A DNA stretch of 52,854 nucleotides, from positions 1-52,854 of IMG/VR virus record IMGVR_UViG_3300030333_002333; one strand, 5' to 3'. The position numbers and the translations under genes are program-made. The number at the start of each line of letters is the position of its first letter. The first letter of the stretch is position 1. Under the pieces are notes generated by a model, which was given only the letters and a program-made list of their open reading frames with translations, was not told where the DNA came from and made no database searches. Shown here piece by piece: positions 1 through 43,561 of this stretch. Source of the stretch: a virus (taxonomy: Duplodnaviria; Caudoviricetes).

Positions 1-269
1 TGAGGCAGTAAATGCCGTTACTCAGTTTATGAGTACTAGAACTGGGGACATGGTAGAAGGTGCTGTTAATCTTGGTGTAGCATCAGGTGTATCTGCTTGG
101 CAAGAGGGATTAAGTGTTGTAGCAGACTCAATGTTTGGAGGTGCTGTAGCAGGTGCAGGCTTCAGGGCTATTGGTAATATGATTAGAGTACCCGGTGCAA
201 AACCAGTTCTTCCCGGAACTCCTTTAAAAGAATTAACTAAAGCCCAGATTAATGAAAAAGCATTAAAGG
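1..269. repeat. Terminal direct repeat, left copy (assembly overlap of a circular/permuted genome)
   Basis: 1-269 matches 52586-52854 (offset 52585) except at positions 4 and 268. Confidence 0.95.
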
Positions 270-3200: not shown

Positions 3201-6200
3201 TAGCAGATGGTAGTACCCCAACTCTTGGTGAGATGTGGGAAACATATCAAAGAGGTAATTTATCCAAGGGTGTTAAGAGAAGATATGAACATTTGTTCAC
3301 TGCTATTGCAGTAAGGACTCCTATGGACTCACTCAGTGGGGCTCATAAGCTTAAATTTGCTGGTTTTACGGGCAGAAAAGGCTATGGTGTGGTGTTACAT
3401 CCAAGAACTATGGAAGCACTGGGAGGAGCCGATTTAGACGGTGATAAAGCATCTATATTTTTTGGTGATAAGAAGTGGGGATTTAAGAATAGTTGGAAAA
3501 ATGCATATCATAATCAAAGAAGTGAGTTTTATAGTAGCGATGGTTCCCAAGGTAAGGTCCCAACTGTAAAGATTATTAGTGGTGGTCAGACTGGTGCTGA
3601 TATTGCAGGTAATGAAGTTGCTGTAGCTAGAGGGATGGAGTCAGGTGGTACAGCACCTAAAGATTATGCTACAGACCGTGGTAAAAAACCAGAGTATAAA
3701 GATAAGTATGGCATGGTAGAAATAACTGACCAGCAGACCAAGGGGTATATTGGTAGGGAAAAGAAATGGGGACCTAGAACTGAACAAAACATTATGGACT
3801 CAGATGGTACTGTTATATTTGGTGTTACTAGTTCACCCGGGAGTAAGTTAACTAAAGACCTTGCTATAAAAAATGGTAAACCATATATAGAAAATCCAAC
3901 TCCAAGAGAATTAAATGAGTTTTTAATAGAAGAAGGTATAAAAGTTTTAAATGTAGCAGGTAATAGAGAGAGGAAAAACCCGGGTATAAATAAGAAGGTT
4001 AAAGAGATACTTAATGAAGCACTTGAAGAGAAGGCTCCCGACAGAGAAATAGAGATAGAACATAACAAACCTGAAGATATGCGTAAGCTTCTAGCTGAAG
4101 ATAATCCTGAGACTTTAAGTAGGATTAAAAGTTATTCTTTAAGGTTCTCTCCACTCATGAGATATCAAGCAAGTAAAGCAGCCTATGAGGGTAGGGCTAT
4201 GCTTGGTCCTGCTGTTGTAAATAGAGCGACCCTACTAGGTGCTTATAACCAAATAAGAACATACCTAGAGCATACAGGACAGCCAAAGTTAGTTAAGAAA
4301 ACTAGAGATGGTAAGGTTTTGTGGGAAGTTACTCCTAGAATAAGCAAGGCAGAGTTAAAGAAATTCAGAAAGATTGCTAGAGCATCTGTTGCATTAGCAT
4401 CTGACCCTATGGATGAGGCTGGTTTAAAGAACATAGATACTTTTTATAATAGTGTATTTGATTCTTTGTTTAAAATGAGAAAGGCAAGTTATGACAGAGT
4501 CACTGGTGAGTTTAAAGGATGGAGGGAGAATGACCAATTAAGTACATCAGAAAGAAAGAAGATTGGTGCTGGTACAATGTCTGCTATTAACTCAGCATCC
4601 TTTGGTAGGAATTTAGAGACAGGTAACAAACATAGTTTTTATGATTTTTACAACACAATGGAAAGAGCTTATAAAGAATTACCATATACAGAGGAGATTG
4701 GATTTGGCAATGCATTCCATACTAAGATTGCAGAATTAGTTAGAGGATTAGATTGGAATGATAGCATGGTCCACAGGATTGATTCAAATAGATTAGCTGG
4801 TTGGTATGAAAGAATAGCAGAGACATTTAGCAAGGCTGAGTATAAAGATATACAATCTCTATTAGGAAGAGATAAGCCTACAGGTTCATTAAGTATCACT
4901 ATGAACAGACCACTACAGTTGGTATTGGAAAATAAAATATTTGAAGTCTTTAGTAGGAACAGACATATATGGTCAGATGACCCAGAGTCACCTAGTTTTT
5001 CTAAGTTAGTTAATGAGAACGCTGACTTGTTTTATAATTTCTTTAGGAAACATAATCCTGATATAACTCTTATGAATCAAGTTGAAAAGTTAAAGGGCAT
5101 GACTATTGAAAAGGCAGCGAGAGAGTATGATAAGATAATAACAGAAGATATGAGAAAAGACCATCATGCTTATAATGATGTAGTCAAAAGAGATGCTGAT
5201 ACTGGGGAGTTAATAGCATTTGGAGCACACAGAAAAGCAAGGAAGAGGGGTGCTAAAAAACATTGGACATTAGATGGACATAGGTCTAATAGGATTTCAG
5301 AAAAAGATATGATTCAATTGTCTGGTGGAATCAAGATGATGGATACAAAGACTAGAGCTAAAATGGTAGATGAACTACTTAAGTTGTCTAGTGATGCTAT
5401 TAGTAATGACCTTGGAGACTGGGCAAGTGCAAGACTTATTAATGAAGTATGGGCAAGGGATTCTATAAGTGGTAAAAGATTTCAAGAACTAGCAAAACTA
5501 TCTGATAAGGTTCAAAGATTGAGGCAAAAGCTTGATAAAGAAAGGGATATGGTAGCATCCTTAGAAGATATTGAAATGTCTGATGGTCAGAGAAAACAAA
5601 TAGAAAAATTAAGTGAGTTAATTGCAGGTGAAAGAACCTCTGGAGAGATGGACCAAAGAAGAGTTGATAATTTTATCCGAAGAGAAAAAGATAATATGAC
5701 TCAAGCAGAACAAGACCTATTTGATTCTCTATTAATATCTAGTTGGAAAATTGGTGAGCCAGCAAGAGTAAGGAAGATGAATAATCTTATTGATGTTATA
5801 ATAAAACAAAGACCACCAAAGAAAGGTCCAGAGCGTACTAGGTGGTTCCAACAGGTTAAGAACCTTGAGGAATTTAGAGACCAGAAGGCTAGGGAATTAC
5901 ATAATACAAAATTTAATAAAGTGGGATTCGCATCTAAAGAAGTAAGTGACCATATCATTAAGAGACAGATGGATATTATGGAAGAAGCTTATAATTCTTT
6001 TAGATATGAGGATAGCTTACGGGATACAAGGGTTGCTGAGGCACAATTAAAAGAGCTTGAAAAAGAAAATGCCAAGCAACCTTTGTTTAATGAGCAAGGT
6101 GAAAGATTGCAAGGTATAGCAATAGAGCAAAGGCACTATAGTCGTAAGACTCAAAAGTGGATGGAGGATTATGTTCCTTTTGAAGACCTGCTTAAGTATG

Positions 6201-9200
6201 AAAAAATAAAGGCAGACCCTGAAGCAAGGAAGATATTAAATAGCCTAAAAGACCATTTAAATTATTATGGTCCAAAGACTGCAGAGGATTTACACCTTAT
6301 AGTCAGAGGTATGGTTAATAAAGATATCAATGTTATGACATTACAAGATTGGAAGATTGTTGATAATATATTTAAATCATATAGGAGAGGGACTTGGTTT
6401 CAAAATTTTAAAGATAGCATTAAGAAAGGAAAATTCCCTGACTTACAAGCTAGGAATTATAGAATGTTTCCAGAGGCTATAGATAGAAACATAACAAGGT
6501 ATGAAGCTAAGTGGGCTGATACAGAAACTATATATAGAGATAAGTATGGTAACTGGATTACTGGTAGAGCAAAAGAAATGCAGGGATGGATGGGTGAGAT
6601 ACAGAATGGTATTCACTTAAGTACAGAGATTGGAACTATGCAGACTCAAAGAGAAGAGAGAGCTTGGAATGATTCAGTAGAAAGATATCTCAATACAGAA
6701 CTAGGTGAAGACCTATGGTGGTATTCAGTTGCTAAGTTTGAAGCAGATTATGTACCAAAACAATTAAGAAAAAACCCTGTGTTTGATGAACTATCAGAAT
6801 CATTTGCTCAGACTTATATAAAAAGACATGAGAAATGGCATGAAAAATTAAACTGGGATGAGACTCAAAGTAGATTACTTACATTAACTGATGGTAAAAG
6901 ATTGACTGCTGGAGAGATAAGTAAAAAAATACAGGAACTAATTGCAGTAAAGAATGCAGAGAACCATCAACTCCTAAAAGGAGAAGAAGGTTTCATGGAA
7001 AAAGAGTTCCAACTATGGGGACCAATGAAGTGGAAGAAGGGTGGAAAAACTATAAGAGGACCACTCTATTATAAGATAATCAATAACAAGACAGGGATAG
7101 CAGAGATAACAGACATTCCAGTTGTAAGTAGAAAGAAAGTTATAGAGTACTTTACACAGAAGTTGAGACATGGAGAAGCTTTTCCAGAGAATCAACTTGG
7201 TATAGATGGGATAAGAAAATTAATGTTAAGTATGCAGGTGGGTCAGTTAAGAGCACAAGAAAGAAAGACTGAAAGAACAGGTAGAATTAACCATACTGAT
7301 TCGAGAAATCTATCTGCTAGGTTATTAAAGAAAGAGATTACTCCTACTGGTACACTTGGTGAGGTTAGATATGTTAATGGAAAGAAAGCAATTTATGGAT
7401 ACTATCCTCATGTAAGTAAAATGTTTGAGAGGGATGTTATTGTTGGTGACTTAGCTCAAAAGATTAAAGCAATTTGGCGTAGTAACTTACCTAAAGAAGA
7501 AAAAGAAATGAAGGCTGCTAAATTATATCTAAGAAGTAAGCAGTTATCTGGTGACTTTGCAGAGAGAGACCCTATGAATGATAGTTGGGAAGTTGTTAGT
7601 GATGCTATTATAAGAATGCAACAAGGTAAGGAAATTAAAAAAGAGATGGGATGGTTTGAAGGGCTATCAAGAATTAGTAATCAATTCTCAAGAGAAAGCC
7701 ATGTTGATGGATGGAACATGGGACCAGAAGCCTATCTTGAATACACTAATAGTATTTATAAATCATTCTATCGTTCAATAGGACAGATAATGGCTCGTGA
7801 ATCTATCATGAGTTTTGCAGAGAAACATCCTGATATGCCACAGAATTTAAAAACAAGTTGGATGAATTTCTTTAAGCTATATGCACAGCAATCATTAGGG
7901 TTCCCTGCTGAGATACCTGATGCTATGTATGATAATAAAGATATGAAAATAAAGGGTACATTGTATGGTGCGTTAGCAGATAATAGAGTAGCCAGAAGAC
8001 TAGATAAGATGGCTGATATACTTAAGTTAAAAGATAGGAAGGGTAATCTACCAAAAGAATTAAAAGCATTGAATAAGGTAGATGCACAAACAGTAATTAA
8101 CTTGAGTAACATGGAAGCAAAGTATGCACTTGCTACATTGTTAGCCCATCCTAAATCAAGCGTTGGTAATTATCTAGGTGGTACTCAAATGACTATCATT
8201 AATTCGGGTTGGAATAATTTTAGAAAAGCAAGAAGTCTTGATTATCTTAGGAAGACTATTGACCCAGAGTTTAAAAGCTGGGAAGATGTTAATAGGTGGG
8301 TAAGAGAGCTTGGCATCATTGAAGAGTTTATACTTAGGGAGGTTGGTGCCAACCCACAATTAACTGGTGTTAAATGGAATAGTTTTTTAAAGGATTTCAA
8401 ACAAGCATTAAATAAGGACCCTAATCTACCTGATGTTACCCTTAGGGATATGATGAAGAGACATGGTTTAACTAGGACTATGACAGATATAGCAGGTAAG
8501 TTTATGTCTATACCTGAAAGAACTCTTCGTAGGGATTCATTTATAGCTCATTATATACAAGCAAGAGATAAACTTGGTGGTAGAATACTACCTAAGGACC
8601 ATCCTTACTTAATAGAGATGGGTAAGAGAGGTGTTAAGGCGACCCAGTTCTTATACTCTGTACCATTTAGACCAATGTTTGCAGGAACTGCAATGGGTAA
8701 GGTACTAACTAGGTTTCAGTTATGGGCTTGGAACAGTGTAAGATTTAGAAATCAAGTAATAAGAGAAGCAAGTGAAAGAGGAATAAATGAGCACACTCCT
8801 GAGTTTCAAAGGTTTAAAAGACTTGCTATATCAGATGCATTCTCATTAGCATTAGGTTCTATGTTTATGTATTCATTATTCGGTTCACAGATGCCACAGC
8901 CTTATGCTTGGTTCCAAGATTTATCTGATTGGATGTTTGGTGATGAGAAGGACAGGGACAGGGCTTTCTTTGGTGCTTATCCTTCACAGGTAGCACCATT
9001 ACAGTTAATAACACCACCTAGTGCTAGATTAACAGGACCAATACTTAACGGTCTTATTAATGGAGACTGGGAGAAAATGTCTAACTATTATATCTGGACA
9101 ATGTTCCCATTTGGTAGGTTAGCAAGAGACCTCTTTGGTCCGGGTGGATTAACAGAGAATCCATACTACGGATTAGATAAGATGACAGGTCTACCAGTAG

Positions 9201-9325
9201 TAGCATCAAAAAGATTATCTACTAAGAGAAAGAAAGAAGAAGAGAAAGGTACTGAGTTCTGGACTCCACCGGGATTAAAGGTATCTAAGTATTTTACAAC
9301 AGGTGAAGAGGAGGATGAAGCCTAA
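29..9325 (+). CDS. Giant virion/ejection protein with double-psi-beta-barrel RNA polymerase core (putative virion RNAP) and inserted cpYpsA/SLOG domain; true start probably 52095 across the junction (~3271 aa)
   Basis: AVRTP (R at 3314) then GGADLDGD (DLDGD 3431-3445); upstream MDGEII (2168) and GKYQFKG (2297); KIISGGQTGAD...RTEQNIMDSDGT...VLNVAGNRE at ~3566-4030; lies at the end of the structural operon. Confidence 0.8.
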   Translation: MSTRTGDMVEGAVNLGVASGVSAWQEGLSVVADSMFGGAVAGAGFRAIGNMIRVPGAKPVLPGTPLKELTKAQINEKALKGIAGSLMMGLPATLRGATTEEQIYDYLLGAFFGQQEMYVKNRRAIEHLRKMKTEYRDPETDTLGTPHPELVEGWKTLDSETKGIVRGIVEQDIKQGGVISHLLYRDDYNKLKAMQDAQGKAKEIYEGEVVERVRRPEEELTESRDTTGNTGDMNPELREPEAYEALFTKTRHYVERFLENEWKDAPDKQLALEDAWRTVNRKWNDVVERNIRLQDTENPAQEMIKWVNKKYKKNIVEGNEEWNYWTKWGQARKYNKPVQVASIVLDIKGAQRRRNRMDPELRGQTILEPDNRLHILNENLEPDAMNMAQNSKQLREPAKILEGVYANEIHKHTGLRHDPRDPVYLVVDHVVSNVKTGGKYFKEESFSDLRRNLTQDAKDLFQLQAKQGMFQGLSGKELKTVKEKFIARETEAKYNNIMQSTLRSLNERGYLYLGGRGDAERLYFVKQHPGIKTKMFFEGSTVPRREKNLRNQILDTLQKEVDRQFREGTIREKEDVMALYAREKKLWQDIMASGSRNYDQRSRGYDKQQAGKLFDRTFLNNVMYDLSMNGLPFTKKAIRQLGMPGMIRDAKAFNKRSQIWFTNGTPSDPAFIKRVASEEASIPIPDEGYRFILHEDTKGKTFLSSQAKEYVHTMDGEIIMLPELVKAHNLEQGLPLEGNVNKSFIVSPSAEHGAMLGKYQFKGAPSELAEAMRANNIHMIVPESAAKQWGSRPMYERWEWSNGNIKLYKADGSLERRASKNWDVNNLPIESIRTVTSEITGDKSKKDARLPKQMQSNLTPFGYKPIKHRVIDEIFERASRRSFEGDPEINSLAEQLQGMPNEKIERKILKNIEDLGVPQLLKLINDPTNESFAVKAYNKILRVNESIVNDLIAEGEISGEQGHAIKLDAMEWSSVFDRMTSLKPGSLTPLLHKVGDNYRQSVLRNYILAQIVKPKMTNSISARMVGYDSYLQKKLPELQKNDNIFYLDDSYADKQMRLADGSTPTLGEMWETYQRGNLSKGVKRRYEHLFTAIAVRTPMDSLSGAHKLKFAGFTGRKGYGVVLHPRTMEALGGADLDGDKASIFFGDKKWGFKNSWKNAYHNQRSEFYSSDGSQGKVPTVKIISGGQTGADIAGNEVAVARGMESGGTAPKDYATDRGKKPEYKDKYGMVEITDQQTKGYIGREKKWGPRTEQNIMDSDGTVIFGVTSSPGSKLTKDLAIKNGKPYIENPTPRELNEFLIEEGIKVLNVAGNRERKNPGINKKVKEILNEALEEKAPDREIEIEHNKPEDMRKLLAEDNPETLSRIKSYSLRFSPLMRYQASKAAYEGRAMLGPAVVNRATLLGAYNQIRTYLEHTGQPKLVKKTRDGKVLWEVTPRISKAELKKFRKIARASVALASDPMDEAGLKNIDTFYNSVFDSLFKMRKASYDRVTGEFKGWRENDQLSTSERKKIGAGTMSAINSASFGRNLETGNKHSFYDFYNTMERAYKELPYTEEIGFGNAFHTKIAELVRGLDWNDSMVHRIDSNRLAGWYERIAETFSKAEYKDIQSLLGRDKPTGSLSITMNRPLQLVLENKIFEVFSRNRHIWSDDPESPSFSKLVNENADLFYNFFRKHNPDITLMNQVEKLKGMTIEKAAREYDKIITEDMRKDHHAYNDVVKRDADTGELIAFGAHRKARKRGAKKHWTLDGHRSNRISEKDMIQLSGGIKMMDTKTRAKMVDELLKLSSDAISNDLGDWASARLINEVWARDSISGKRFQELAKLSDKVQRLRQKLDKERDMVASLEDIEMSDGQRKQIEKLSELIAGERTSGEMDQRRVDNFIRREKDNMTQAEQDLFDSLLISSWKIGEPARVRKMNNLIDVIIKQRPPKKGPERTRWFQQVKNLEEFRDQKARELHNTKFNKVGFASKEVSDHIIKRQMDIMEEAYNSFRYEDSLRDTRVAEAQLKELEKENAKQPLFNEQGERLQGIAIEQRHYSRKTQKWMEDYVPFEDLLKYEKIKADPEARKILNSLKDHLNYYGPKTAEDLHLIVRGMVNKDINVMTLQDWKIVDNIFKSYRRGTWFQNFKDSIKKGKFPDLQARNYRMFPEAIDRNITRYEAKWADTETIYRDKYGNWITGRAKEMQGWMGEIQNGIHLSTEIGTMQTQREERAWNDSVERYLNTELGEDLWWYSVAKFEADYVPKQLRKNPVFDELSESFAQTYIKRHEKWHEKLNWDETQSRLLTLTDGKRLTAGEISKKIQELIAVKNAENHQLLKGEEGFMEKEFQLWGPMKWKKGGKTIRGPLYYKIINNKTGIAEITDIPVVSRKKVIEYFTQKLRHGEAFPENQLGIDGIRKLMLSMQVGQLRAQERKTERTGRINHTDSRNLSARLLKKEITPTGTLGEVRYVNGKKAIYGYYPHVSKMFERDVIVGDLAQKIKAIWRSNLPKEEKEMKAAKLYLRSKQLSGDFAERDPMNDSWEVVSDAIIRMQQGKEIKKEMGWFEGLSRISNQFSRESHVDGWNMGPEAYLEYTNSIYKSFYRSIGQIMARESIMSFAEKHPDMPQNLKTSWMNFFKLYAQQSLGFPAEIPDAMYDNKDMKIKGTLYGALADNRVARRLDKMADILKLKDRKGNLPKELKALNKVDAQTVINLSNMEAKYALATLLAHPKSSVGNYLGGTQMTIINSGWNNFRKARSLDYLRKTIDPEFKSWEDVNRWVRELGIIEEFILREVGANPQLTGVKWNSFLKDFKQALNKDPNLPDVTLRDMMKRHGLTRTMTDIAGKFMSIPERTLRRDSFIAHYIQARDKLGGRILPKDHPYLIEMGKRGVKATQFLYSVPFRPMFAGTAMGKVLTRFQLWAWNSVRFRNQVIREASERGINEHTPEFQRFKRLAISDAFSLALGSMFMYSLFGSQMPQPYAWFQDLSDWMFGDEKDRDRAFFGAYPSQVAPLQLITPPSARLTGPILNGLINGDWEKMSNYYIWTMFPFGRLARDLFGPGGLTENPYYGLDKMTGLPVVASKRLSTKRKKEEEKGTEFWTPPGLKVSKYFTTGEEEDEA

Positions 9326-14393: not shown

Positions 14394-14944
14394 GAGCGTT
14401 TAACTCGTTTCACCTTGTTGATTGTTGCTCCGTCAGGCATATCTTTATTATCCTTTGCTAAGGACATACAAGCTTTGCGTAACTTTGCTTTATCTACTTT
14501 CTGCACTATTTCAGTTTTTATGAAATCATCTGGGAGTGCATTTTGGTCATGTACAATGACCGAACCAAATGTTTCGTACAACTTATACCTTGCAGTATCA
14601 GTTTCTAAAACTCCATTTTCATCTCCAAGTTCTTCTATCAACATTGGTAGTAAAACTTTATTAAGATAATCAGAAGTTCTAGTTAAGGCATTTTTCCTAT
14701 TTCGTAACCTAGCAATTTCGTCTTTATGAGCCTCTATCTCTGCGTCTATCAGATATTCTCTTTCCTTGATATTTTGTGAGAAAAAGTCAATGCCATCAGC
14801 CTTGTCCTTAATCTTTCCTTGTATCAAGGATTGTTCTTCTAATAAAGCAGGAAGATTAGATTCCTCTTCGAGTTCCATCCTAAGCATTAAATCCATATGG
14901 TCTCCAATAAGCTCTTTTGCAGTTTGCTTTTTATCGTTATTCAT
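14390..14944 (-). CDS. Siphovirus Gp157-family protein
   Basis: Coiled-coil KIKDKADGI...IDAEI...EIARL...; LPDDFIK...VDKAKLRK...GA pattern; located in replication/recombination block. Confidence 0.75.
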   Translation of the reverse strand: MNNDKKQTAKELIGDHMDLMLRMELEEESNLPALLEEQSLIQGKIKDKADGIDFFSQNIKEREYLIDAEIEAHKDEIARLRNRKNALTRTSDYLNKVLLPMLIEELGDENGVLETDTARYKLYETFGSVIVHDQNALPDDFIKTEIVQKVDKAKLRKACMSLAKDNKDMPDGATINKVKRVKRS

Positions 14945-16736
14945 AGTCTCTCCTTAATCTAAATGATGGTCTCCATCTTAAAGGAACATCCTCAAAGAGT
15001 TCTCCATCTGAGTTTTTAAACAATGATAGTAGTTTTACTGGGTCTTTGGATTGCCCATTAATCCCAATAACTTTACGACTAGCATTTTCAATAGCACCAC
15101 TACCTTTACCAGCATATAAATCAAGAACATCATTTTTAGAATATTCTCTACTTACCTGTGATAATTGTATAATTATTATATCATTATTAACTGCCATGTT
15201 AGATAAGCTATGACTTATATATCTAATACCTTCATATTCACCACGGTGAGAAGGACCAGCATCTATCAAGTCAATGTAATCTACAACTACAACTTGAGGG
15301 TCTAACTCTTTAATCTTATGAGCAATATCCTCAACTGTTGGTTGTATGGTTTGTATAATTATATGGTCTAATAATTCTTTATGGTCATCTGCTATCTGCT
15401 TTGCATTTGCTTCTACTTGTTGTTTATCTACATCAGCAACTATTTGAATGTGTCTTTTATGCATGTACCAATCACTCAATTCTAAACTTAAATATAATGT
15501 ATTTAGTTGTTGGTCTGGGTCTATTCTATCTTGTGAAGCGTTATAACCTAAGACTATATTTTGAGCAACTGTTGTTTTACCAGCACCAGTTGGACCAAAG
15601 ATGGTTACCAACTCACCGGGATATATCGTACAATCTAAATTAGGAAGTCCAAAGATTTTTGATAAATCTATAGTTCTTCCACTGAAATCCGTAGACAGTC
15701 TTTCTTCTAGTTTCTGCTGTAATTGTGTGAAGTCCTGTACATTAATTGTATAGTCCTTTCTCTTGTAATGAATACAATGTGTTTGACATCGTGCTTTCAT
15801 CTCTGGGTCTTGACATCCATATTGATACCCATTATTGTATACTGATTCGACCTTCTCCAGAATAATGTTTTCAGATAATTGATTATCATTCCAATATAAA
15901 AGTGCAGCCTTAGTAGCGTCACTTGGTATACCATTTCTTCTAAAGTGTGATGCAATTCTGAGTATTATATTGTTTCGAGTACCAGATTGAGGTCCTTCTT
16001 TCCACATTTGCTGTACACATGGTACAACTTTTGTAGGTTCCTGAACGGCTTTAAAGGCTCTTACTGTCTCAACATTGGTTTTTATACTAGTTTGTAGGGA
16101 ACCATCTCCCCACATAGCATCTTCCCAATCAATACGGGATGGTGTCTTTGCCAGTTCTTTAACATCTTCAAACTTCATACTAATGAAAGATTCAAAAGGC
16201 ATAAGAGTTTTAAATAAATTTGATTTAGGATTTTTAGTACCCTCTTCTCTATAAATAGATGTTCTCATATAAACAGCAGGGTCTATATCGATACTTTCTA
16301 TTAATTGAGTCATGGTTTGTTTAACCATGTAAGGTAAATCCTCATGTGGCTCAAATCCAAAACAATCAGAACATACCATTATATGATACCCAGTTCCACT
16401 ATAATAGATTTTATAATTACCAAGTTTTAAACCTAATTCCATTAACTCTCTTACTGCAGACTTTGCTTGTTCTAAAGTATACTCATCAGAATTATCTTTC
16501 TTATCAATATCTATAAGTATGCTATCAGTATAGCGTTTACCCATATAATCTTTTAAAGAATGATGAGTTCTAACAAAGTCTACTGCAGTATCATCATATA
16601 AATAATGAGACCGATAGATAGGCATAGTCTGCCCCTTGTCAAAAAATTCATTAAGATTTTTCTCGTATTCCCCAAGGGTCATAAGGAGTCCCCGTTGCCG
16701 AGGACTCCCTATTGCTACTTCAACATATAGTGCCAT
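14937..16736 (-). CDS. AEP primase(-polymerase) fused to SF4 (DnaB-like) helicase
   Basis: ILIDID, YYSGTGYH, IDPAVY AEP motifs; GTRNN PriCT-like region; GPTGAGKT, LSLEL, VVVDYID, LSQVSR, GSGAIE helicase motifs. Confidence 0.88.
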   Translation of the reverse strand: MALYVEVAIGSPRQRGLLMTLGEYEKNLNEFFDKGQTMPIYRSHYLYDDTAVDFVRTHHSLKDYMGKRYTDSILIDIDKKDNSDEYTLEQAKSAVRELMELGLKLGNYKIYYSGTGYHIMVCSDCFGFEPHEDLPYMVKQTMTQLIESIDIDPAVYMRTSIYREEGTKNPKSNLFKTLMPFESFISMKFEDVKELAKTPSRIDWEDAMWGDGSLQTSIKTNVETVRAFKAVQEPTKVVPCVQQMWKEGPQSGTRNNIILRIASHFRRNGIPSDATKAALLYWNDNQLSENIILEKVESVYNNGYQYGCQDPEMKARCQTHCIHYKRKDYTINVQDFTQLQQKLEERLSTDFSGRTIDLSKIFGLPNLDCTIYPGELVTIFGPTGAGKTTVAQNIVLGYNASQDRIDPDQQLNTLYLSLELSDWYMHKRHIQIVADVDKQQVEANAKQIADDHKELLDHIIIQTIQPTVEDIAHKIKELDPQVVVVDYIDLIDAGPSHRGEYEGIRYISHSLSNMAVNNDIIIIQLSQVSREYSKNDVLDLYAGKGSGAIENASRKVIGINGQSKDPVKLLSLFKNSDGELFEDVPLRWRPSFRLRRDYE

Positions 16737-16784: not shown

Positions 16785-17426
16785 CTAAAACGGCAAATCA
16801 TCGCCTGATGCAGATGTCGTGGTTGAAGTAGTAGTGTTGGCAACATCCTCATCGGACGCCTCCTTAATATACTGCTTTTGTTGCATATAGGTAACATAAC
16901 TAGTTAGTTCTGCTTTCCCTTTTGCATCATTAGAGCATATTTTGCCAAGAACTCTTTTATACACCTTTGCTCCTGCCTTTTTAGGGGCTTCTTTGTAAAG
17001 ATATATATAGAAGTCAAATGGTGGCTCTAACATAGGATTGTCAGAACCATTCATATTGTTTATGTGGTTATTAAGAGATGTTTCAATGTTGTCAATGACA
17101 CCACCTTCTTCATCTTCCCAAGTTCCCATGGTGTTAATACCACCTTCATAACCAATAGCATCCTTAAAATAGTTAAATTGTCTAACCATTTTATTGACTT
17201 TCACAGTACCATCGGCTTCTTTATCAAAAGAACCTTTGATACTATGAACTTGGGGATATTGACTCCCTTTTAAGTTGAAATGGACATCAATCCATACATC
17301 AGCCCAATCATATTGGTCTGACCTGTCTTCAACTTTGATTATACCAGCCTCAAAGTAACCAGTAAAATCATTCTTGACAGAAGATGTTTTGGTTTGTAAT
17401 AACGCCATGTTATTCTTCTCCTTCAT
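16785..17426 (-). CDS. Putative single-stranded DNA-binding protein
   Basis: Acidic tail ending DDLPF; lies between Sak4-like ATPase and primase. Confidence 0.65.
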   Translation of the reverse strand: MKEKNNMALLQTKTSSVKNDFTGYFEAGIIKVEDRSDQYDWADVWIDVHFNLKGSQYPQVHSIKGSFDKEADGTVKVNKMVRQFNYFKDAIGYEGGINTMGTWEDEEGGVIDNIETSLNNHINNMNGSDNPMLEPPFDFYIYLYKEAPKKAGAKVYKRVLGKICSNDAKGKAELTSYVTYMQQKQYIKEASDEDVANTTTSTTTSASGDDLPF

Positions 17427-18246
17427 CTTTGTATTCAGTTATTGCCTTTGTAATGTCATCGTAGGTAAAAGGCAGTATTTTCCCATTCAATGGTTTTAGT
17501 CTAGAACCAACTGTTCTCTCATCATAAGCTTGAAAAGAAACATTAGGTATAATTTCATCCTTAACAACCGTACTATACCCAATCACATCAGCTCTAGCAC
17601 ATAGTGCGTAACCTAGACCTCTAGGGAGTTCTGGGCTTAATTGCACTTTGCCATCGTTCATTTGAGATTGCTTTGAGTGGGATGTTAAAATCAAGTTAGA
17701 ACCATGTTGTTTCATAAGCATTTGTAAACGCTTAACTAAATCAACATTTTTCCTTCTTGCTTTACCCCAGTCAGCACCCCACTGACCTTCGCCCATAGCA
17801 GTTATACCAAGTTCTTCACATACTGCTTTCTCTATCCATTGATTGACAGTATCTATCGTATCAATGACCAGAGTTTCATATGGTAGTTCTTGCCAGTTAT
17901 CCTTTAACCAGAGGAATACCTCTGCTAATGAATAAACTTCCATGGGTTCTCCCTTCTGTGGACCTACACGATGATAAAAACCTCTTTCCAAGTTTGGAAT
18001 AATTTTCCTATCATCGCCTTCACCTTCGTAGGGGGGATTTAATGATGTAACAGTTACAACATTTGCTCCATCAACAAAGTCTGCTCCTAAATCAGTATCA
18101 AGAATTAAGACACCTTCGGCACCTTTACTTGACCAATTTGCAGCAGCAGTTGTTTTACCCGTTTTAGGCTGACCGATAAAATACCAAGTCAGCCCCCCGG
18201 GTGCATCTTGCCAATTAGTTGAAACTGTACGAGCTTGTATTTTCAT
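17410..18246 (-). CDS. AAA_24 / Sak4-like ATPase (ssDNA annealing/recombination)
   Basis: GQPKTGKTT Walker A, ILDTDLG, LVIDTID Walker B, LILTSH; adjacent to SSB. Confidence 0.82.
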   Translation of the reverse strand: MKIQARTVSTNWQDAPGGLTWYFIGQPKTGKTTAAANWSSKGAEGVLILDTDLGADFVDGANVVTVTSLNPPYEGEGDDRKIIPNLERGFYHRVGPQKGEPMEVYSLAEVFLWLKDNWQELPYETLVIDTIDTVNQWIEKAVCEELGITAMGEGQWGADWGKARRKNVDLVKRLQMLMKQHGSNLILTSHSKQSQMNDGKVQLSPELPRGLGYALCARADVIGYSTVVKDEIIPNVSFQAYDERTVGSRLKPLNGKILPFTYDDITKAITEYKDEGEE

Positions 18247-18973
18247 ACGACACCTCTTCAGTTAATATGTTATCTGATTGTTCATCTTCTCCACAATAAA
18301 AGTCTTCTTTCTTTATATCTAAAGGCGAAAGACCTTGCCAAATATACTGAAAAAATGGTCTCTCAGTCAAGTAATTAAACATCTGAGTAACACCTATTCC
18401 AGCAATTAGGTTAGCACAGAATATCGTATGTTTCATTGTACATGGAGCTTGTTCTCCAGAGCCTCCGTTAGGAAACCAGTACTTATCATAAACATCGCTA
18501 TTCCTTGTTATTGTTATGCATGACATAGTTAGAGCGTCCATACGCATATCAATAAAGACTTGCCTATTTTCTCTTGTCAACCAGTTATCATAAACACATT
18601 TTCTTGAAGTCATGTCGTCTGTACAAACTATCGTTTTATCAGAAAGGACTTGCCCAGTGCCTGTGAATTTCTCCACAAGCATCTGGGTTTCCACATCTTC
18701 TCCACCGTAATTTTCAACTATCCTGTTTGCGAATCCAGCTTTAGTGTTGGACTCTGTAGGGTCGTACCATTTCTCTGGATACAGGGTTGTTCCAAAGTTG
18801 TGTTGTTCCATCGAATCGTTATCGTAACCTCTGATAAAATCAAATCCCATGATAGCCAATAGTTGAACTACTGCACTACCAATTCCACCAAGACCAACGA
18901 CTGTTACATCGTCAAGCCTTTCTTGTGGAATTAAGTCTTGATTCCTCAGATGTTTCTGGGAGAGCAATGACAT
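18215..18973 (-). CDS. ThiF/MoeB/E1-family adenylyltransferase (Ubl-activating enzyme)
   Basis: RNQDLI arginine finger, VVGLGGIGS, YDNDSMEQHN, K78, CTDDMTSR, IDMRM; candidate catalytic Cys178 (EQAPCTMK). Confidence 0.9.
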   Translation of the reverse strand: MSLLSQKHLRNQDLIPQERLDDVTVVGLGGIGSAVVQLLAIMGFDFIRGYDNDSMEQHNFGTTLYPEKWYDPTESNTKAGFANRIVENYGGEDVETQMLVEKFTGTGQVLSDKTIVCTDDMTSRKCVYDNWLTRENRQVFIDMRMDALTMSCITITRNSDVYDKYWFPNGGSGEQAPCTMKHTIFCANLIAGIGVTQMFNYLTERPFFQYIWQGLSPLDIKKEDFYCGEDEQSDNILTEEVSYENTSSYSFN

Positions 18974-19850
18974 CTCTAGCTCCTTCTATTTTATCAAATT
19001 CAGTTTCTCCTTTATTCCAAGCCATTATAAAAGATACTGGGTCTAAACCAAGTGCCTCTAATTGCTCAGCAAAAGCAGTATACTGTAATTTGTTATTGTG
19101 ATAGGCTTCGGCTAATAACATCAAGAATGCATCTTCAGGTTCACCTTGCTGACTAGCAAGTTCTTGAATCTCCTCAATAAGTTTCTCATCTGGGTCAGTC
19201 TCGTTGATAGCCTTCCCATAGCCGTTGAAACCTTGAGTGTCTCCATGTCCCCAAAATGTACCTTGATTGTATACATTTCCTCTGCCGTAAAATCCAACTG
19301 CAGTCGTCTCTTTCTTTTCTTTCTTAATCTTATCTGCAATGTATTTCCATTTACTCTCTTCTTCATCAGGTGGCATTTTCATTTTAACATCACCTTTAGA
19401 AGCTTCATAGATATGAACTTTATCATAATGGTCTTTATAACCACATGCAAATGCCCATCTCTCTTTAGCACTGGCAACAACAGTAGAACAATAAAAGTTC
19501 TCCTGTGGTGCATTATCTTCTATGCAGGATTTATCTGTACCACTGAAGAAAGCACCCATACTATGATGGGAATGAATTATTCCCATCATACACTTTTCAG
19601 TTTCTGGATACTCTTTCCATGTTTTGGTAAGAATCTTAGCTGTATCACCTGCTTCAATAGTAGTGGCTGTGCCATGTCCTAAATCAACAGGATGAAAGTG
19701 AACTAATTCAAATCCTACGGGGAATTTCTCGCCTTTTTTAAGAATTGGCTTGTACCATGCTGGTCCACTCCATTCTTCAGACGGGAATCTGTTTAGAAAA
19801 TAAGTCACCTTGTTCCACACTCTTAGTGGTACTTGTAAGTACATTTTCAT
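18912..19850 (-). CDS. JAB/MPN+ (JAMM) metallopeptidase, Ubl-processing/deconjugating enzyme
   Basis: EEWSG plus H93-S-H95-x7-S103-x2-D106 (IHSHHSMGAFFSGTD); acidic C-terminal tail. Confidence 0.9.
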   Translation of the reverse strand: MKMYLQVPLRVWNKVTYFLNRFPSEEWSGPAWYKPILKKGEKFPVGFELVHFHPVDLGHGTATTIEAGDTAKILTKTWKEYPETEKCMMGIIHSHHSMGAFFSGTDKSCIEDNAPQENFYCSTVVASAKERWAFACGYKDHYDKVHIYEASKGDVKMKMPPDEEESKWKYIADKIKKEKKETTAVGFYGRGNVYNQGTFWGHGDTQGFNGYGKAINETDPDEKLIEEIQELASQQGEPEDAFLMLLAEAYHNNKLQYTAFAEQLEALGLDPVSFIMAWNKGETEFDKIEGARDVIALPETSEESRLNSTRKA

Positions 19851-21915
19851 ACTCCTCGTATTTTTGCTTATAATGGTCTTTCCAACTATTATAAGCCAGT
19901 TTGATTATTTCCACATCAATCATGTATCTCAACTCTTTGACCTCGTCAATAGATTTTGGAAATTCTGGGAAAACTTTATAGAACCATCCAATGAAACTAT
20001 CAAGAACAAGTTCTTGCATATCAGAATCATAGTCATGCAAATTACCATGCATTGCATCCATAAAGATTTCCCTATCGTCTTCGTCAGCTAATTCACTCTT
20101 TGAAAGCATTTCGATTACGAATGACCTGTAAGGTCCAATCAGTGAACAATTTCTCAGACAATAGCTAAATAACTGTTGCCATATTTCACTATTCGTTAGC
20201 TTTTCTTGAGGATAATAGCCATCCCAGTTATGATTACGCAAAACTAATGTATCGGGAATTAAAATCATTCCCACAAAGTCTTGTGTATGCGACATTGGTG
20301 CGTATCTACCTGTTTTGCTCATGCTTTCACATGCTCTTTTCATCTTCATATTCCAATAGTCTACCCAAGCAAAGTTTGGGTGGTCATCATGAGTATAGTA
20401 ACTCATACTACCATCAGTAAAGGTACCGTCATCATTCCAATAACACCTACCTGCTAGTAGCATTGACTCTTCTTCTAGTTTATCATAATCATGATTGGTA
20501 GCAATGGTAAAATCTCTTGTAATGAGTTCCCATTCACCAGTTGAATCTGATAGTCTTGAAGAAACTTCCCATCTAGCGTGACTGTCCATAATAGTATCAA
20601 GCTCAGGGTTCTTTCCAAGAACCATTAGCATTGTAGTATAATTACCACACACTCTTTGGCTTGACCTATTCCATTCATGCTGTCCAAAATTGGAAAGAAC
20701 ATTAAGTAAGCCATAACCCATGGGTCTTCTACTAACATATGTTTTTAAATAATTTTGTTTAAAATCATCTAAAACATTACCCCAGTTCTGTCTATACCAT
20801 GTTGATACACCTTGCATGAAAGCGTGCATATCACCAAGCGTCCAGTCATACCCAGATTTAGAAGTTATCCATTGACAGACTGCACTTGATACTCTTCTGT
20901 CTGTTAAATGGCTTATTGAATCTGTCCAAGTAACATACTTAGAATATTGTTCTGCCCATTCATCACCAGAAATATCGCCATGTGGATATCTAGCAAAAGG
21001 TGCTAAAACAATCTCAGCCTGTTTATGGATATCATCTACCATATGTTCAAATGCCCACGGTTCTTTTTCCATGAGTTCTGAATTATCTTCATAGATATAC
21101 CAATTCAATACTCGTTCCCAGATAATAGCATTTCTACCAGTATCTTCACAAAATTGAATTATCCAGTCTTCGCCAAATACCTGTCTCAGACTCCTATCTA
21201 ATGCTATTGCTTTTTCAGGAGCACCCTTTCTTACTAGATTGAGAGCACCATAAGGATATACAAATCCACGCAATGTTTCATTAGTATTCTCATCTTGTAT
21301 CTTAGTATCCCACATATATGCATCTACACTAAAGAATGTACTACGACCATTATAGTCATTAAGAAATCCTCTAATAGTTTCCAGTTGCTGATATGGTGAG
21401 TTATACTGGGAATCGACAATATTTTCATGCCATCTTCCATAACAAGCATTACCACCATTATCTACATGTGGATGATAAAAAGTAAAGAATGGATTTTCAC
21501 ATAGTTCATATGCGTCTTCTGGTGGTGCATCTCTGAGATATGATACAGGTTCTGCTTTTTGCAAATACCTTAATACCTCAGGAGCCCAATCAAAATGTCC
21601 ATACCTTAAAGGAAATGCTACATAGCAAGGTGCTGTATACCAAAATTTTCGTATCCGTAATCGTATGTCCCGTACTATCCATAATACATAATCTCTCTGA
21701 CTATCATAAATAAATTCATATTCATTTAGAAAATCATACCAATTCATATTATTAGCGATATCTCCATCTGGGATTTTATTCAAAAACAATCGTTCCATTA
21801 GTTGTACTGCTGATATTTCGTTAGTTATTTCCTTGCCATCTACTACATTACTTGTATATTTAATTACACTTTTTTTATTTAATCGCTCGTGCGTTGCTGT
21901 TTCACTCGAAAACAT
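19777..21915 (-). CDS. Large protein with N-terminal E2 (UBC-fold) Ubl-conjugating domain and ~500-aa unknown C-terminal region
   Basis: FYHPHVDNGGNAC158YGRW...SP...IRGFLNDYN matches HPN(I/V)xxxGxIC spacing; AAGGAGG SD. Confidence 0.78.
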   Translation of the reverse strand: MFSSETATHERLNKKSVIKYTSNVVDGKEITNEISAVQLMERLFLNKIPDGDIANNMNWYDFLNEYEFIYDSQRDYVLWIVRDIRLRIRKFWYTAPCYVAFPLRYGHFDWAPEVLRYLQKAEPVSYLRDAPPEDAYELCENPFFTFYHPHVDNGGNACYGRWHENIVDSQYNSPYQQLETIRGFLNDYNGRSTFFSVDAYMWDTKIQDENTNETLRGFVYPYGALNLVRKGAPEKAIALDRSLRQVFGEDWIIQFCEDTGRNAIIWERVLNWYIYEDNSELMEKEPWAFEHMVDDIHKQAEIVLAPFARYPHGDISGDEWAEQYSKYVTWTDSISHLTDRRVSSAVCQWITSKSGYDWTLGDMHAFMQGVSTWYRQNWGNVLDDFKQNYLKTYVSRRPMGYGLLNVLSNFGQHEWNRSSQRVCGNYTTMLMVLGKNPELDTIMDSHARWEVSSRLSDSTGEWELITRDFTIATNHDYDKLEEESMLLAGRCYWNDDGTFTDGSMSYYTHDDHPNFAWVDYWNMKMKRACESMSKTGRYAPMSHTQDFVGMILIPDTLVLRNHNWDGYYPQEKLTNSEIWQQLFSYCLRNCSLIGPYRSFVIEMLSKSELADEDDREIFMDAMHGNLHDYDSDMQELVLDSFIGWFYKVFPEFPKSIDEVKELRYMIDVEIIKLAYNSWKDHYKQKYEEYENVLTSTTKSVEQGDLFSKQIPV

Positions 21916-21947
21916 ATTGTTTCCTCCTTTTAAGTTGTGAACCGTGA

Positions 21948-21971
21948 GGGCTGGTTATTGTTTCCCAGCCC
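21948..21971 (-). promoter_or_regulatory. GC-rich intergenic hairpin between the Ubl and E2 genes
   Basis: GGGCTGG (21948-21954) / CCAGCCC (21965-21971), extendable via GAAC/GTTC; no U-tract. Confidence 0.5.
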
Positions 21972-22002
21972 CCCGTGTTCGATTATGCTGAAAAGTTAAA
22001 AA

Positions 22003-22272
22003 TTAACCTTTCAGAGTACTGACGATGAAGACTCTTGCTCCACCGTTCCCAGACTCTTGCTTAGCCTTCTGAAAAGACACAGTCTGTCCATCTCTTAAAC
22101 GAGTGGAAGACTTTGCAGGTTTACCACCTACATAGATTGCAACATCACTATCAGCGATACCGAATCCTTCCTTTTCAGCAATCTCAGCGGGAGTGGACGC
22201 TACCACAGTCTTAGGAACACCACCTGAATGGTATGCCATATAGCGTACAGTTGGTTTGTCACTATTTGCCAT
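22003..22272 (-). CDS. Ubiquitin-like (beta-grasp) protein, probably a precursor
   Basis: 89 aa; VAIYVGGKPAKSSTRLRDGQTVSF resembles the ThiS/MoaD/Ubl 'V.VNG...LxDGD.V' pattern; KQESGNGG then an 11-aa tail; first gene of the E2-JAB-E1 cluster. Confidence 0.75.
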   Translation of the reverse strand: MANSDKPTVRYMAYHSGGVPKTVVASTPAEIAEKEGFGIADSDVAIYVGGKPAKSSTRLRDGQTVSFQKAKQESGNGGARVFIVSTLKG

Positions 22273-22277
22273 AGTAA

Positions 22278-22598
22278 TTAGACCTCCGTTTGCTGTAGAA
22301 GATATTCCTCATGTTGTCGATGAGGTTTTACCTTCTGGGTTGTGACTGGTTTCCCAGTTTTCCTAATGGAAAATTTCGCAATAGGTTTCTTTCCAAGTAT
22401 ATTCATCTCTTTCCTGTAATTACCCTGAGCTTTTCTCAAGATATACAATGCGTCATCGTAACTCGGATATATACCTAATAGCGTCTTTTGCCATTCGATA
22501 GGAATCTCTACCTTCTCACCTTTAATGGTGACTTTTCTTGTTGTAAACCATTCTATTTGAATTAATGAATAGTTTACCTCTTGTTTTTTCTCTGCCAT
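22278..22598 (-). CDS. Hypothetical protein immediately upstream of Ubl
   Basis: 106 aa ORF; contains the GGAGG SD for the Ubl gene. Confidence 0.65.
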   Translation of the reverse strand: MAEKKQEVNYSLIQIEWFTTRKVTIKGEKVEIPIEWQKTLLGIYPSYDDALYILRKAQGNYRKEMNILGKKPIAKFSIRKTGKPVTTQKVKPHRQHEEYLLQQTEV

Positions 22599-42982: not shown

Positions 42983-43561
42983 ATGTTACACTACGCAAAG
43001 CCAACTAGGAAATCAGTACTAGAGAATTGGTGGTTTATAAATGAATTTCTATCTGATGAAGAGATAGAAAGAATCGAACTCAATGTAAAGGGTTTAGACT
43101 ATAAAGATGCTACTATAGTAGCTAATAGTAATGTAAATGAAGAGTATAGAAAAAGTAGTATAAAATGGATTGACTTTAACTATGAATGGATATACGACAA
43201 ATTATGGCACTGGGTTAATATAGCCAATGATGATATCTGGGGATTTGATATTGAAGGGTTTAAGGATGAATGCCAATACACTCATTATAAAGCACCAGAT
43301 GGTCATTATGACTGGCATACTGATATAGGTGGTGATGGTATAAATCATAGAAAGATTAGTGCGATAGTACAGTTAAGTGATAATAATGAATTTAAAGGTG
43401 GTAACCTTGAATTTCTAAATGGCAAAGACCCTATACAAATAGAGATGTGGAAGGGTCGATGTGTTCTATTTCCTTCTTTCTATTTACATAGAATTACTCC
43501 TATATTAGAGGGGGAGAGAAAGTCCTTAGTTCAATGGATTTCTGGAGCTCCATTCAAGTGA
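42983..43561 (+). CDS. 2OG-Fe(II) oxygenase (prolyl-4-hydroxylase/PKHD-like)
   Basis: YDWHTD (HxD), RKISAIVQLS, GGNLEF, FPSFYLHRITPI..GERKSLVQW; AAGGAGG SD. Confidence 0.9.
   Translation: MLHYAKPTRKSVLENWWFINEFLSDEEIERIELNVKGLDYKDATIVANSNVNEEYRKSSIKWIDFNYEWIYDKLWHWVNIANDDIWGFDIEGFKDECQYTHYKAPDGHYDWHTDIGGDGINHRKISAIVQLSDNNEFKGGNLEFLNGKDPIQIEMWKGRCVLFPSFYLHRITPILEGERKSLVQWISGAPFK

Follow-up and report, generated by a model that had tools for sequence, protein, structure and literature searches.

The stretch of DNA analysed here (the window) is the whole of IMG/VR virus record IMGVR_UViG_3300030333_002333, 52,854 bases in length and 98% complete by CheckV, and belongs to an uncultured marine phage. 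Four consecutive genes on its minus strand are predicted to encode an 89-residue ubiquitin-like protein (Ubl) made as a precursor, a 712-residue E2-like fusion protein (E2L), a 312-residue JAMM/JAB metallopeptidase and a 252-residue E1-like adenylating enzyme of minimal form (Table 1). We estimate a probability of about 60% that the window carries a phage-encoded cassette for ubiquitin-like activation and conjugation, built into a replication and recombination operon. An earlier note, made from the sequence alone, had proposed a complete phage-borne tagging pathway at this locus, and the open reading frame (ORF) listing places the four genes exactly where that note had them. Consecutive genes overlap, E2L with JAB by 74 nucleotides (nt), JAB with E1 by 62 nt and E1 with the following Sak4-like gene by 32 nt, and these overlaps link the cassette genes to each other. 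All of the motifs that the note had quoted were found again when each was re-translated at its own coordinates: ESGNGG at residues 73-78 of the 89-residue protein; HPHVDNGGNAC at residues 148-158 of E2L, with a His148-to-Cys158 spacing of 10 and NSPYQQLETIRGFLNDYNG following; Glu26 together with HSHHSMGAFFSGTD at residues 93-106 of the peptidase, in the pattern H-x-H-x7-S-x2-D; and GLGGIG at residues 27-32 of the E1-like enzyme, with Cys178 inside APCTMK. As Pfam cut-offs are passed and the gene order is kept in 15 related IMG/VR loci, the observation goes beyond chance.

Table 1. Predicted genes, domains and motifs of the cassette and its neighbours, with positions in the window.
Feature	Position	Strand	Basis or remark
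Pro-Ubl gene, 89 aa	22003..22272	(-)	ORF listing
Conserved ThiS/MoaD-like core of pro-Ubl, residues 1-75, ending ...QESG	22048-22272	(-)	Alignment
Variable tail of pro-Ubl, residues 76-89, predicted to be removed	22006-22047	(-)	Alignment
E2-like fusion protein E2L, 712 aa	19777..21915	(-)	N-terminal domain and disordered C-terminal tail conserved, helical body between them fast-evolving
Candidate UBC-like catalytic domain, E2L residues 30-205	21301..21828	(-)	Best-conserved part
HPHVDNGGNAC, candidate active site (His148, His150, Asp152, Cys158); Cys158 the predicted Ubl acceptor	21442..21474	(-)	Alignment
All-helical region of no known fold, E2L residues 230-698, proposed target-recognition part	19822..21228	(-)	Mean pairwise identity 0.13-0.28
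E2L C-terminal tail SVEQGDLFSKQIPV, disordered in model	19780..19821	(-)	Wholly within the JAB gene overlap
JAMM/JAB metallopeptidase, 312 aa	18912..19850	(-)	Pfam, motif, alignment
JAMM motif HSHHSMGAFFSGTD (H-x-H-x7-S-x2-D)	19533..19574	(-)	Alignment, re-translation
E1-like (ThiF/MoeB-type) adenylating enzyme, minimal form, 252 aa	18215..18973	(-)	Pfam, PHROGs, alignment
GLGGIG nucleotide-binding loop of E1	18878..18895	(-)	Alignment, re-translation
Cys178 of E1 (APCTMKH), crossover region, candidate thioester cysteine	18440..18442	(-)	Alignment
Sak4-like AAA_24 recombination ATPase	17410..18246	(-)	Pfam, PHROGs; overlaps E1 gene by 32 nt
213-aa protein without family assignment, C-terminus ...SGDDLPF	16785..17426	(-)	Pfam and PHROGs scans, re-translation
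Primase-helicase fusion (PriCT_1 + DnaB_C)	14937..16736	(-)	Pfam, PHROGs
106-aa conserved protein without family assignment, next upstream of the Ubl gene	22278..22598	(-)	In 10/15 loci, 32-59% identity

The 312-residue protein matches Pfam Prok-JAB (PF14464) with an E value of 7.1e-6 and 26.3 bits against a cut-off of 25. Its JAB domain occupies residues ~1-130 and is followed by a C-terminal extension that is variable; relatives begin at Met3 of the window protein. Related viral contigs supplied 10 JAB and 9 E1 sequences for alignment, and Glu26, His93, Ser94, His95, Ser103 and Asp106 are invariant in the JAB family (11/11). PHROGs places the protein in a phage family of unknown function, phrog_16107. 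The 252-residue protein matches Pfam ThiF (PF00899) over residues 22-205 of 252 (E 1.7e-9, 37.6 bits against a cut-off of 28.1) and phrog_15670 (E 3.8e-13), again of unknown function; it has no rhodanese domain, inserted Cys domain or ubiquitin-fold domain. GLGGIG, Arg10, Asp51, Lys78, Asp119, Arg124 and Cys178 are invariant in its family, and we assume that the acidic, basic and loop residues of the active site have the roles they have in MoeB and ThiF. When the family profile was compared with solved structures, MccB was the best match (9e-5), followed by BubCD (2e-3) and ThiF (7e-3). Models of named systems were matched weakly: the sole named NCBIfam match of the peptidase was PRTRC_A (14.1 bits against a cut-off of 101.8), the E1-like enzyme weakly matched PRTRC_ThiF (12.3 bits against 144.75), cap2_3 and ThiF/MoeB models, and PADLOC returned weak CBASS E1-E2 matches alone, over ~40 residues spanning the nucleotide loop of the E1. 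On their sequences, the identification of the 312-residue protein as a JAMM/JAB peptidase and of the 252-residue protein as a ThiF/E1-like enzyme is solid.

Pfam, PHROGs, NCBIfam and PADLOC assign the 89-residue protein to no family, and a search of 5.8 billion proteins returned 10 relatives at 71-98% identity. In the alignment of these 11 sequences conservation is nearly complete up to ...QESG, with Gly75 invariant (11/11) and the final conserved position; past it come tails of 1-14 residues that resemble one another in neither sequence nor length. Because conservation stops at Gly75 and unrelated tails follow, we read the protein as a Ubl precursor that the JAB peptidase would trim. The earlier note had taken ESGNGG as the reactive C-terminal end; the alignment moves that end to the glycine of ESG, Gly75, as GG77-78 is found only in the window and in one relative of 98% identity.

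An AlphaFold model of the 89-residue protein has the order strand, strand, helix, strand, strand, strand across residues 9-69, at low confidence (pLDDT 62.9). Its nearest structural neighbours are the sulfur carriers TtuB, CysO, MoaD and ThiS, and in an ESM Atlas feature search 16 of 30 matches lay in a set with PF02597 ThiS on 12-21% of its members (score 0.92). Foldseek gave nothing at E <= 0.001 with the Ubl model, nor against the PDB at E 0.001 with the full E2L model described below. FHA domains, which filled the top Foldseek rows at root-mean-square deviations of 8-9 A, were rejected as the fold: the core contains a helix, at 67 residues it is shorter than an FHA domain requires, and those matches depend on inclusion of the variable tail. 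The protein behaves like a ThiS/MoaD-like beta-grasp protein, a reading that the conservation pattern supports well and the modelled fold moderately. Of the beta-grasp Ubl claimed in the note, the precursor-type conservation and the beta-grasp-like order of elements stand, at low model confidence.

E2L is a rare protein, with 8 members in the 5.8 billion proteins and, by profile, 24 clusters among 1.84 billion representatives; Pfam, PHROGs, NCBIfam and PADLOC contain no family for it. His148, His150, Asp152, Cys158, Gly160, Tyr188, Asn189, Ser192 and Phe194 are invariant in all 21 aligned members and P149 is nearly so. In the canonical HPN...C motif of E2 enzymes the His-to-Cys spacing is ~10, as in HPHVDNGGNAC, and a cysteine about 10 residues past a His-Pro-x is present throughout the E2L family (21 sequences), with His rather than Asn in the third position. 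Across 17 full-length members, mean pairwise identity is 0.44-0.48 over residues 81-200, falls to 0.13-0.23 over residues 201-640 and returns to 0.46 over residues 681-712. An AlphaFold2 model built with the family alignment is confident (pLDDT 84.4, pTM 0.79) and has a helix at 59-65, a run of strands at 67-102, the HPH...C loop with helices after it, a disordered linker at 207-219, an all-helical body at 233-698 and a disordered tail at 699-712 (pLDDT <50).

In a fold comparison of E2L, UBC/UEV chains made up 18 of the top 50 among 48,161, each aligned over 118-140 of ~150 residues, and UbcH8 was best among the 340 chains that Foldseek itself aligned. With the full-length model the lists are dominated by the helical part, both for the PDB search and for BFVD, where the best match was an unnamed protein (E 1.3e-2). 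An ESM Atlas feature search with residues 30-230 found viral clusters at 0.93, and one Atlas set (13 of 30 matches, score 0.91) carries PF14460 Prok-E2_D on 15% of its members. A metallo-beta-lactamase reading of HPHVD was rejected, there being no further conserved His and no such fold among the structural matches. We consider it probable that the 712-residue protein is an E2-like fusion protein.

Near its end E2L carries a family motif, Q-[GST]-[ED]-L-[FL], shared by 15 of the 17 full-length members, and one subgroup terminates in ...QTELFS. The motif resembles the sliding-clamp-binding pentapeptide QL[SD]LF, and its use as a clamp-docking peptide is a speculative suggestion from this likeness. 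In every distinct sequence (9/9) the last 53-74 nt of the E2L gene overlap the JAB start, in the +1 frame (19777-19850 in the window), so that the conserved E2L tail and the conserved JAB N-terminus share the same bases; because the tail lies wholly inside this overlap, its conservation may be imposed by the JAB reading frame.

The Ubl alignment was used to retrieve 15 IMG/VR loci, representing ~8 distinct lineages by piece identity, which were compared by tblastn with the window proteins. Ubl is followed by E2L in 15/15 loci, JAB and E1 are present in 13/15 and Sak4 in 12/15; genes are missing only where a locus runs out of DNA, and the gene order never differs (13/13 where the DNA continues). 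Synteny in viral databases, a check proposed in the earlier note, thus came out in favour of the arrangement: as far as the DNA reaches in the 15 contigs, the order is Ubl-E2L-JAB-E1-Sak4-SSB-like-primase/helicase. A search of viral contigs with E2L peptides gave no match.

The genes of this block diverge at very different rates. Identity to the window is 71-85% for Ubl (non-synonymous divergence, dN, 0.17-0.26), 67-81% for E1 (dN 0.17-0.26), 49-57% for JAB (dN 0.33-0.44), 81-86% for Sak4 (dN 0.09-0.14) and 76-88% for the primase-helicase (dN 0.08-0.19). E2L is the fastest-evolving gene at 25-38% identity (dN 0.74-0.85). The ratio of dN to synonymous divergence (dS) is below 1 in all genes compared, the four cassette genes included, with dS saturated. 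A near-frozen Ubl beside a fast E2L is what would be expected if the helical body recognises a changing target, as a specificity factor.

Searches of one genome each from 185,579 prokaryote species and of 72,556 plasmids found no relative of the cassette, apart from a short match of 40-50 residues to the ThiF loop. GenBank phage searches with the region DNA, E2L and Sak4 returned nothing, and the terminase large subunit (TerL) reached 27% identity at best to GenBank phages; because of these results we conclude that the phage lineage has no cultured close relative. We regard the E1-JAB-Ubl set as a real, phage-borne and selectively maintained unit.

More distant counterparts occur in cultured phages. 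A tblastn search with the E1 found 79 GenBank phage records, comprising 29 Flavobacterium phages (FpV4-like), 29 Bacteroides phages (crAss001-like), more uncultured crAss-type phages and 4 Xanthomonas jumbo phages. Eight phages were compared, namely FpV4, crAss001 and six related gut crAss-type phages (four Steigviridae and two unclassified Caudoviricetes). The seven gut phages have primase, a gene A, a gene B, JAB and ThiF, then UDG one gene further on; in FpV4 the UDG gene lies between primase and gene A. JAB is homologous to that of the window in 8/8 phages (hidden Markov model, HMM, E 1e-12 to 3e-19), with the JAMM motif in all, and so is E1 (HMM E 2e-20 to 1.5e-26), with the C[ST][MY]K cysteine in all. 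The earlier note had treated a phage-borne system as an oddity; its viral setting is upheld by the record itself, and the claim needs widening to take in these homologous JAB-E1 pairs of cultured Bacteroidota phages (crAss001 and FpV4).

Gene A begins with ~90 residues ending in ...K-x-x-SG and continues into a long extension in 7/8 phages. In phage cr106_1 (L025:1677-2880) an HNH endonuclease gene lies inside gene A, leaving a 92-residue Ubl-like ORF that ends ...KKIKSGKF and a separate ORF for the C-terminal part; as the first piece ends two residues past SG, it serves as a natural marker of the domain boundary. In crAss001 Gp79 and FpV4 gp53 (L019:2238-2915; L018:1667-2536) the part past ...KSG(G) is long and rich in Lys and Glu, and among the crAss-type phages the extension is conserved (…EAYNAIK..GLQ…KNFT.C.T.DL…). 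In an alignment of 14 rows, gene B (~370-440 residues) shows invariant Y-x-HSH, C-x-G and ES..G.PY, in that order. A search for homologues of crAss001 Gp78 gave 654 matches, with at least 79% identity among the 120 matches listed, too close to deepen the profile. crAss001 Gp79-Gp76 and FpV4 gp53-gp50 share the four-gene order of the window, directly after the primase in crAss001; they differ in that their Ubl-like domain continues into a long fused C-terminal part, and in the length of the protein in the E2L position, just ~370-440 residues. Since sequence similarity of genes A and B to Ubl and E2L is not significant, their equivalence rests on position and motif logic. The GenBank labels of these counterparts are 'thiamine biosynthesis protein', 'metalloprotease domain' and 'hypothetical'.

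In Xanthomonas phage PhiXhv-15 (229 kb; L020:2739-6618), a 141-residue ORF ending ...AKASGG and an 892-residue protein of no family are followed by ThiF (Pfam E 9e-21), between DNA ligase and topoisomerase genes. No JAMM motif was found by pattern in the 892-residue protein, and the genes may be another replication-linked Ubl set with no recognisable JAB.

General family scans took in 43 ORFs of the window. Beyond the primase-helicase, on the same strand, they found a Gam-like protein and an endonuclease VII/HNH protein, and because of the neighbouring Sak4, primase-helicase, Gam-like and endonuclease VII genes we place the cassette in a replication and recombination module. The 'early operon' of the earlier note is unsupported as written, and the context is better described as a replication/recombination block. 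Small conserved proteins of no family lie upstream of the cassette, and plus-strand blocks hold the terminase, portal, capsid, tail fibre and lysis genes. The note's statements that an integrase is lacking and that no sulfur-transfer or cofactor genes lie nearby agree with the scans: among the 43 ORFs there was no integrase, cysteine desulfurase, sulfurtransferase, cofactor gene or DNA polymerase. The phage may depend on a host polymerase.

The ...GDDLPF end of the 213-residue protein resembles what we take to be the acidic C-terminal tip of bacterial single-strand-binding protein (SSB). FpV4 gp49, the gene after the FpV4 ThiF (L018:5681-6769), ends in ...VEDLPF, and from these endings the two proteins may be SSBs of the phages or mimics of SSB. 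A promoter and terminator scan gave promoter-like sites no more often than chance would, and a tRNA scan found none. RNA-library contigs from two runs of a single sample are an exact match to the Ubl gene across 21971-22395 and also match parts of Sak4, E1 and E2L; they are not counted as transcription, and no meaning attaches to the parts they leave bare. These contigs have an extra T after position 22628, which lies upstream of the 106-residue gene and inside a 77-residue ORF; contigs from DNA runs agree with the window, and the difference is probably strain variation. Two giant ORFs were also seen, 29-9325 (+) of 3098 residues, which runs to the record start, and 45975-49901 (+) of 1308 residues; PHROGs had no family for the latter and one weak match of unknown function for the former. 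A 2OG-Fe(II) oxygenase (42983-43561 (+), phrog_61, E 1.6e-36) and a metallophosphoesterase (44937-45728 (+), phrog_221, E 2.9e-26) are interspersed with late and structural genes.

We take PRTRC (the ParB-related, ThiF-related cassette; NCBIfam TIGR03734-03742) to be operon type 6d of Iyer, Burroughs and Aravind 2006. In the 6d operons a small Ubl, an E2-like protein, a JAB and an E1-like protein are each encoded by a gene of their own; the operons also include an alpha-helical part that diverges rapidly, and they reside on mobile elements (PMC1779556). The window shares the four separate functions, the diverging helical part and carriage on a mobile element, and PRTRC_A and PRTRC_ThiF were among its weak NCBIfam matches. 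It differs in that its E2-like protein keeps a His upstream of the Cys, whereas the 6d E2s as described there lack the upstream His and have a downstream one, in that the helical part is fused to the E2-like domain, and in that its JAB has no N-terminal extra domain (PMC1779556). We do not place the cassette in PRTRC: PRTRC_A and PRTRC_ThiF scored far below their cut-offs, no ParB lay among the ORFs scanned, PRTRC B, C, D, E and F were not matched, and NCBIfam had no match for Ubl or E2L. With the window proteins as queries, tblastn retrieved no PRTRC plasmids.

The BilABCD system likewise has Ubl, E2, JAB and E1 functions, and its gene order, if it follows the letters A to D, presumably matches that of the window. 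The JAB of Bil pre-processes the Ubl and exposes a C-terminal Gly, no E3 is used, and a divergent part of the E2 is proposed to choose the target (Chambers et al., PMC10557695). The Bil E1 is large, with inactive and active adenylation domains and an inserted Cys domain, and the Bil E2 is small with a CEHH signature (PMC10557695). Bil is a host-encoded defence, whereas the window has a minimal 252-residue E1 with no insertion and a 712-residue E2L with HPH...C; PADLOC, with weak CBASS E1-E2 matches alone, did not identify a Bil system. Type II CBASS, a host defence, conjugates a cGAS-like enzyme and has no separate Ubl, and its E1 and E2 are fused as Cap2 (PMC10097602). Cap2/Cap3 and the window combine E1-like, E2-like and JAB chemistry, and the window E1 weakly matches PADLOC E1-E2 and NCBIfam cap2_3 over the nucleotide loop; the window, however, has a predicted Ubl of its own and encodes each function in a separate gene. 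Bub is described as working through oxyesters; its E1 has no catalytic Cys, and its operons include a serine protease (PMC11601596). The window, in contrast, has a JAMM peptidase, and the Cys residues of its E1 (Cys178) and of E2L (Cys158) are invariant. The ThiS-ThiF, MoaD-MoeB and CysO-Mec+ systems have a small beta-grasp protein with a C-terminal Gly, to which the predicted Ubl of the window would correspond, and share with the window a minimal E1 and, in some, a JAB; the window differs in having a candidate UBC-like partner and no sulfur donor or acceptor genes or rhodanese domain. In lambda/T1 tail assembly, TAPI (a Ubl with C-terminal Gly) lies next to TAPK (JAB+NlpC) (PMC1779556), with no E1 or E2 and in a tail rather than a replication module. 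A literature search that did not reach most subscription journals or supplements found no paper on a phage Ubl-E2-JAB-E1 cassette in a replication module, or on crAss001 Gp76-79 so interpreted.

By analogy with E1-E2-JAB systems, we infer a pathway of cleavage, adenylation, thioester formation and conjugation to a target. The 89-residue protein would be made as a precursor and cut by JAB after Gly75, removing the tail; the minimal E1 would adenylate Gly75 with ATP and possibly hold it as a thioester on Cys178; the Ubl would then be handed to Cys158 in the UBC-like N-terminal domain of E2L. The helical body of E2L may act as a built-in substrate adaptor, combining E2 and E3 in one chain, and the Ubl would be transferred to a lysine of a host or phage protein important to phage DNA replication, a mark that JAB could also reverse. 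Of the full tagging pathway in the earlier note, the JAB, the E1 and the Ubl-precursor-like protein hold, with conjugation and its target proposed by this analogy. Several observations weigh against a conjugation cassette. The Arg of the NLxRQ stretch is an ATP ligand in E1 enzymes; NLTRQ of MccB aligns to HNFGT-T in the E1 family of the window, so that Arg-Gln is replaced by Gly-Thr, and the crAss-type E1s keep the Gln only. The Ubl model is of low confidence, and with the tail included ~16 of its 50 best structural matches are FHA domains. Genes A and B of the cultured phages are not detectably homologous to Ubl and E2L (hhalign probability 0.06-1.65%, HMM E >0.1). A complex prediction of E1 and Ubl 1-75 with E2L 1-380 as partner scored 0.00, which we read as no answer either way.

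One alternative accepts Ubl, JAB and E1 as real and takes the 712-residue protein for something other than an E2: an unrelated enzyme or scaffold, a metal-dependent enzyme, or a substrate of the Ubl. The E1 would then act alone, as in E2-independent conjugation of the Urm1/SAMP type or C-terminal chemistry of the MccB type, and MccB is indeed the best PDB match of the E1 profile (E 9e-5). No sequence profile ties E2L to E2 families in Pfam, NCBIfam or PADLOC; UQ_con and Prok-E2_A to E were not matched, neither 8 family members nor the isolated N-terminal domain matched any Pfam family at E <= 1-5, and comparison of a profile with the PDB gave 0 matches at E <= 10. The UBC fold matches lie below the reliability level of the tool, the Asn of canonical HPN is His in E2L, and, since the H-x-H-x-D...C pattern resembles metal-binding sites, His148, His150, Asp152 and Cys158 could alternatively form a metal site. 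We nevertheless consider this alternative unlikely, as UBC/UEV folds, aligned over nearly their whole length, occupy 18 of the 50 best places among the 48,161 chains, neither metallo-beta-lactamase nor another hydrolase fold appears among the structural matches, the His-to-Cys spacing equals that of canonical HPN...C, and a protein with a similar order of motifs lies between the Ubl and JAB genes in 8/8 other phages.

A sulfur-carrier or small-molecule pathway would explain the same E1 and JAB differently, with a carrier of the ThiS/MoaD/CysO type matured by JAB, as in QbsD/QbsE or Mec+/CysO, and converted by the E1 to a thiocarboxylate. The 712-residue protein would then be a sulfur-using or acceptor enzyme, making for example a modified nucleotide or base for phage DNA, which the DNA-metabolism neighbourhood would suit. 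Such a pathway fits the structural neighbours of the Ubl (TtuB, CysO, MoaD, ThiS) and its ThiS-bearing Atlas clusters, as well as the minimal ThiF/MoeB size of the E1, and sulfur-metabolism sets of Ubl, JAB and E1 have been described (Iyer et al. 2006, PMC1779556). Against it speak the missing rhodanese domain and the 43 scanned ORFs, which include neither a cysteine desulfurase nor a sulfurtransferase or cofactor gene; the same survey notes that rhodanese never occurs on the E1s of E2/JAB operons (Iyer et al., PMC1779556). Moreover, the 712-residue protein matches no sulfur-using family, its conserved domain matches UBC folds, and its extreme divergence fits protein recognition better than a fixed small-molecule substrate; we judge the sulfur pathway quite improbable. 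The remaining alternative keeps the conjugation chemistry and changes its purpose, so that the cassette intercepts or reverses host Bil- or CBASS-type conjugation or tags host defence proteins. Known bacterial E1/E2/JAB systems act in phage defence (PMC10097602, PMC10557695, PMC11601596), and fast evolution like that of E2L is typical of arms-race genes. Counter-defence genes, however, are usually accessory and variable, whereas this cassette is fixed in a replication operon in 15/15 relatives, its Ubl is highly conserved (71-98% identity), and the JAB-E1 core stands beside primase across lineages with differing hosts, followed by UDG in the seven gut phages and preceded by it in FpV4. We therefore think a counter-defence purpose very unlikely. 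Given the fixed position in replication modules of phages whose hosts differ, we lean, by a weak inference, towards a role of the conjugation cassette in phage DNA replication or in the takeover of host replication and repair rather than in accessory counter-defence.

A wider and rather doubtful proposal is that Bacteroidota phages (the uncultured marine group, FpV4-type and crAss-like gut phages) carry their own conjugation machine as a core replication set, in which a giant E2 with a fast-evolving adaptor would tag a host or phage replisome or DNA-repair protein, possibly docked by the Q-x-[ED]-L-[FL] tail. If true, this would be a bacterial-virus counterpart of PCNA ubiquitination and SUMOylation, and the PRTRC/6d-type cassettes of mobile elements, for which we know of no function since 2006, would gain one. 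To our knowledge, the ubiquitin-like conjugation systems characterised in bacteria to date (CBASS, Bil, Bub) serve in host defence. The comparison also corrects the database labels 'thiamine biosynthesis protein', 'metalloprotease' and 'hypothetical' of crAss001 Gp76-79, and with the JAB-E1 core beside primase in crAss001 and FpV4, both of which can be grown on laboratory hosts, testable relatives are at hand. If the cassette does conjugate, it would represent viral protein tagging for replication or host takeover in prokaryotes, and its single-chain E2 plus adaptor would be a compact model of target choice before E3 ligases. In this virulent-type phage lineage, the Ubl cassette is kept as a fixed part of the replication operon.

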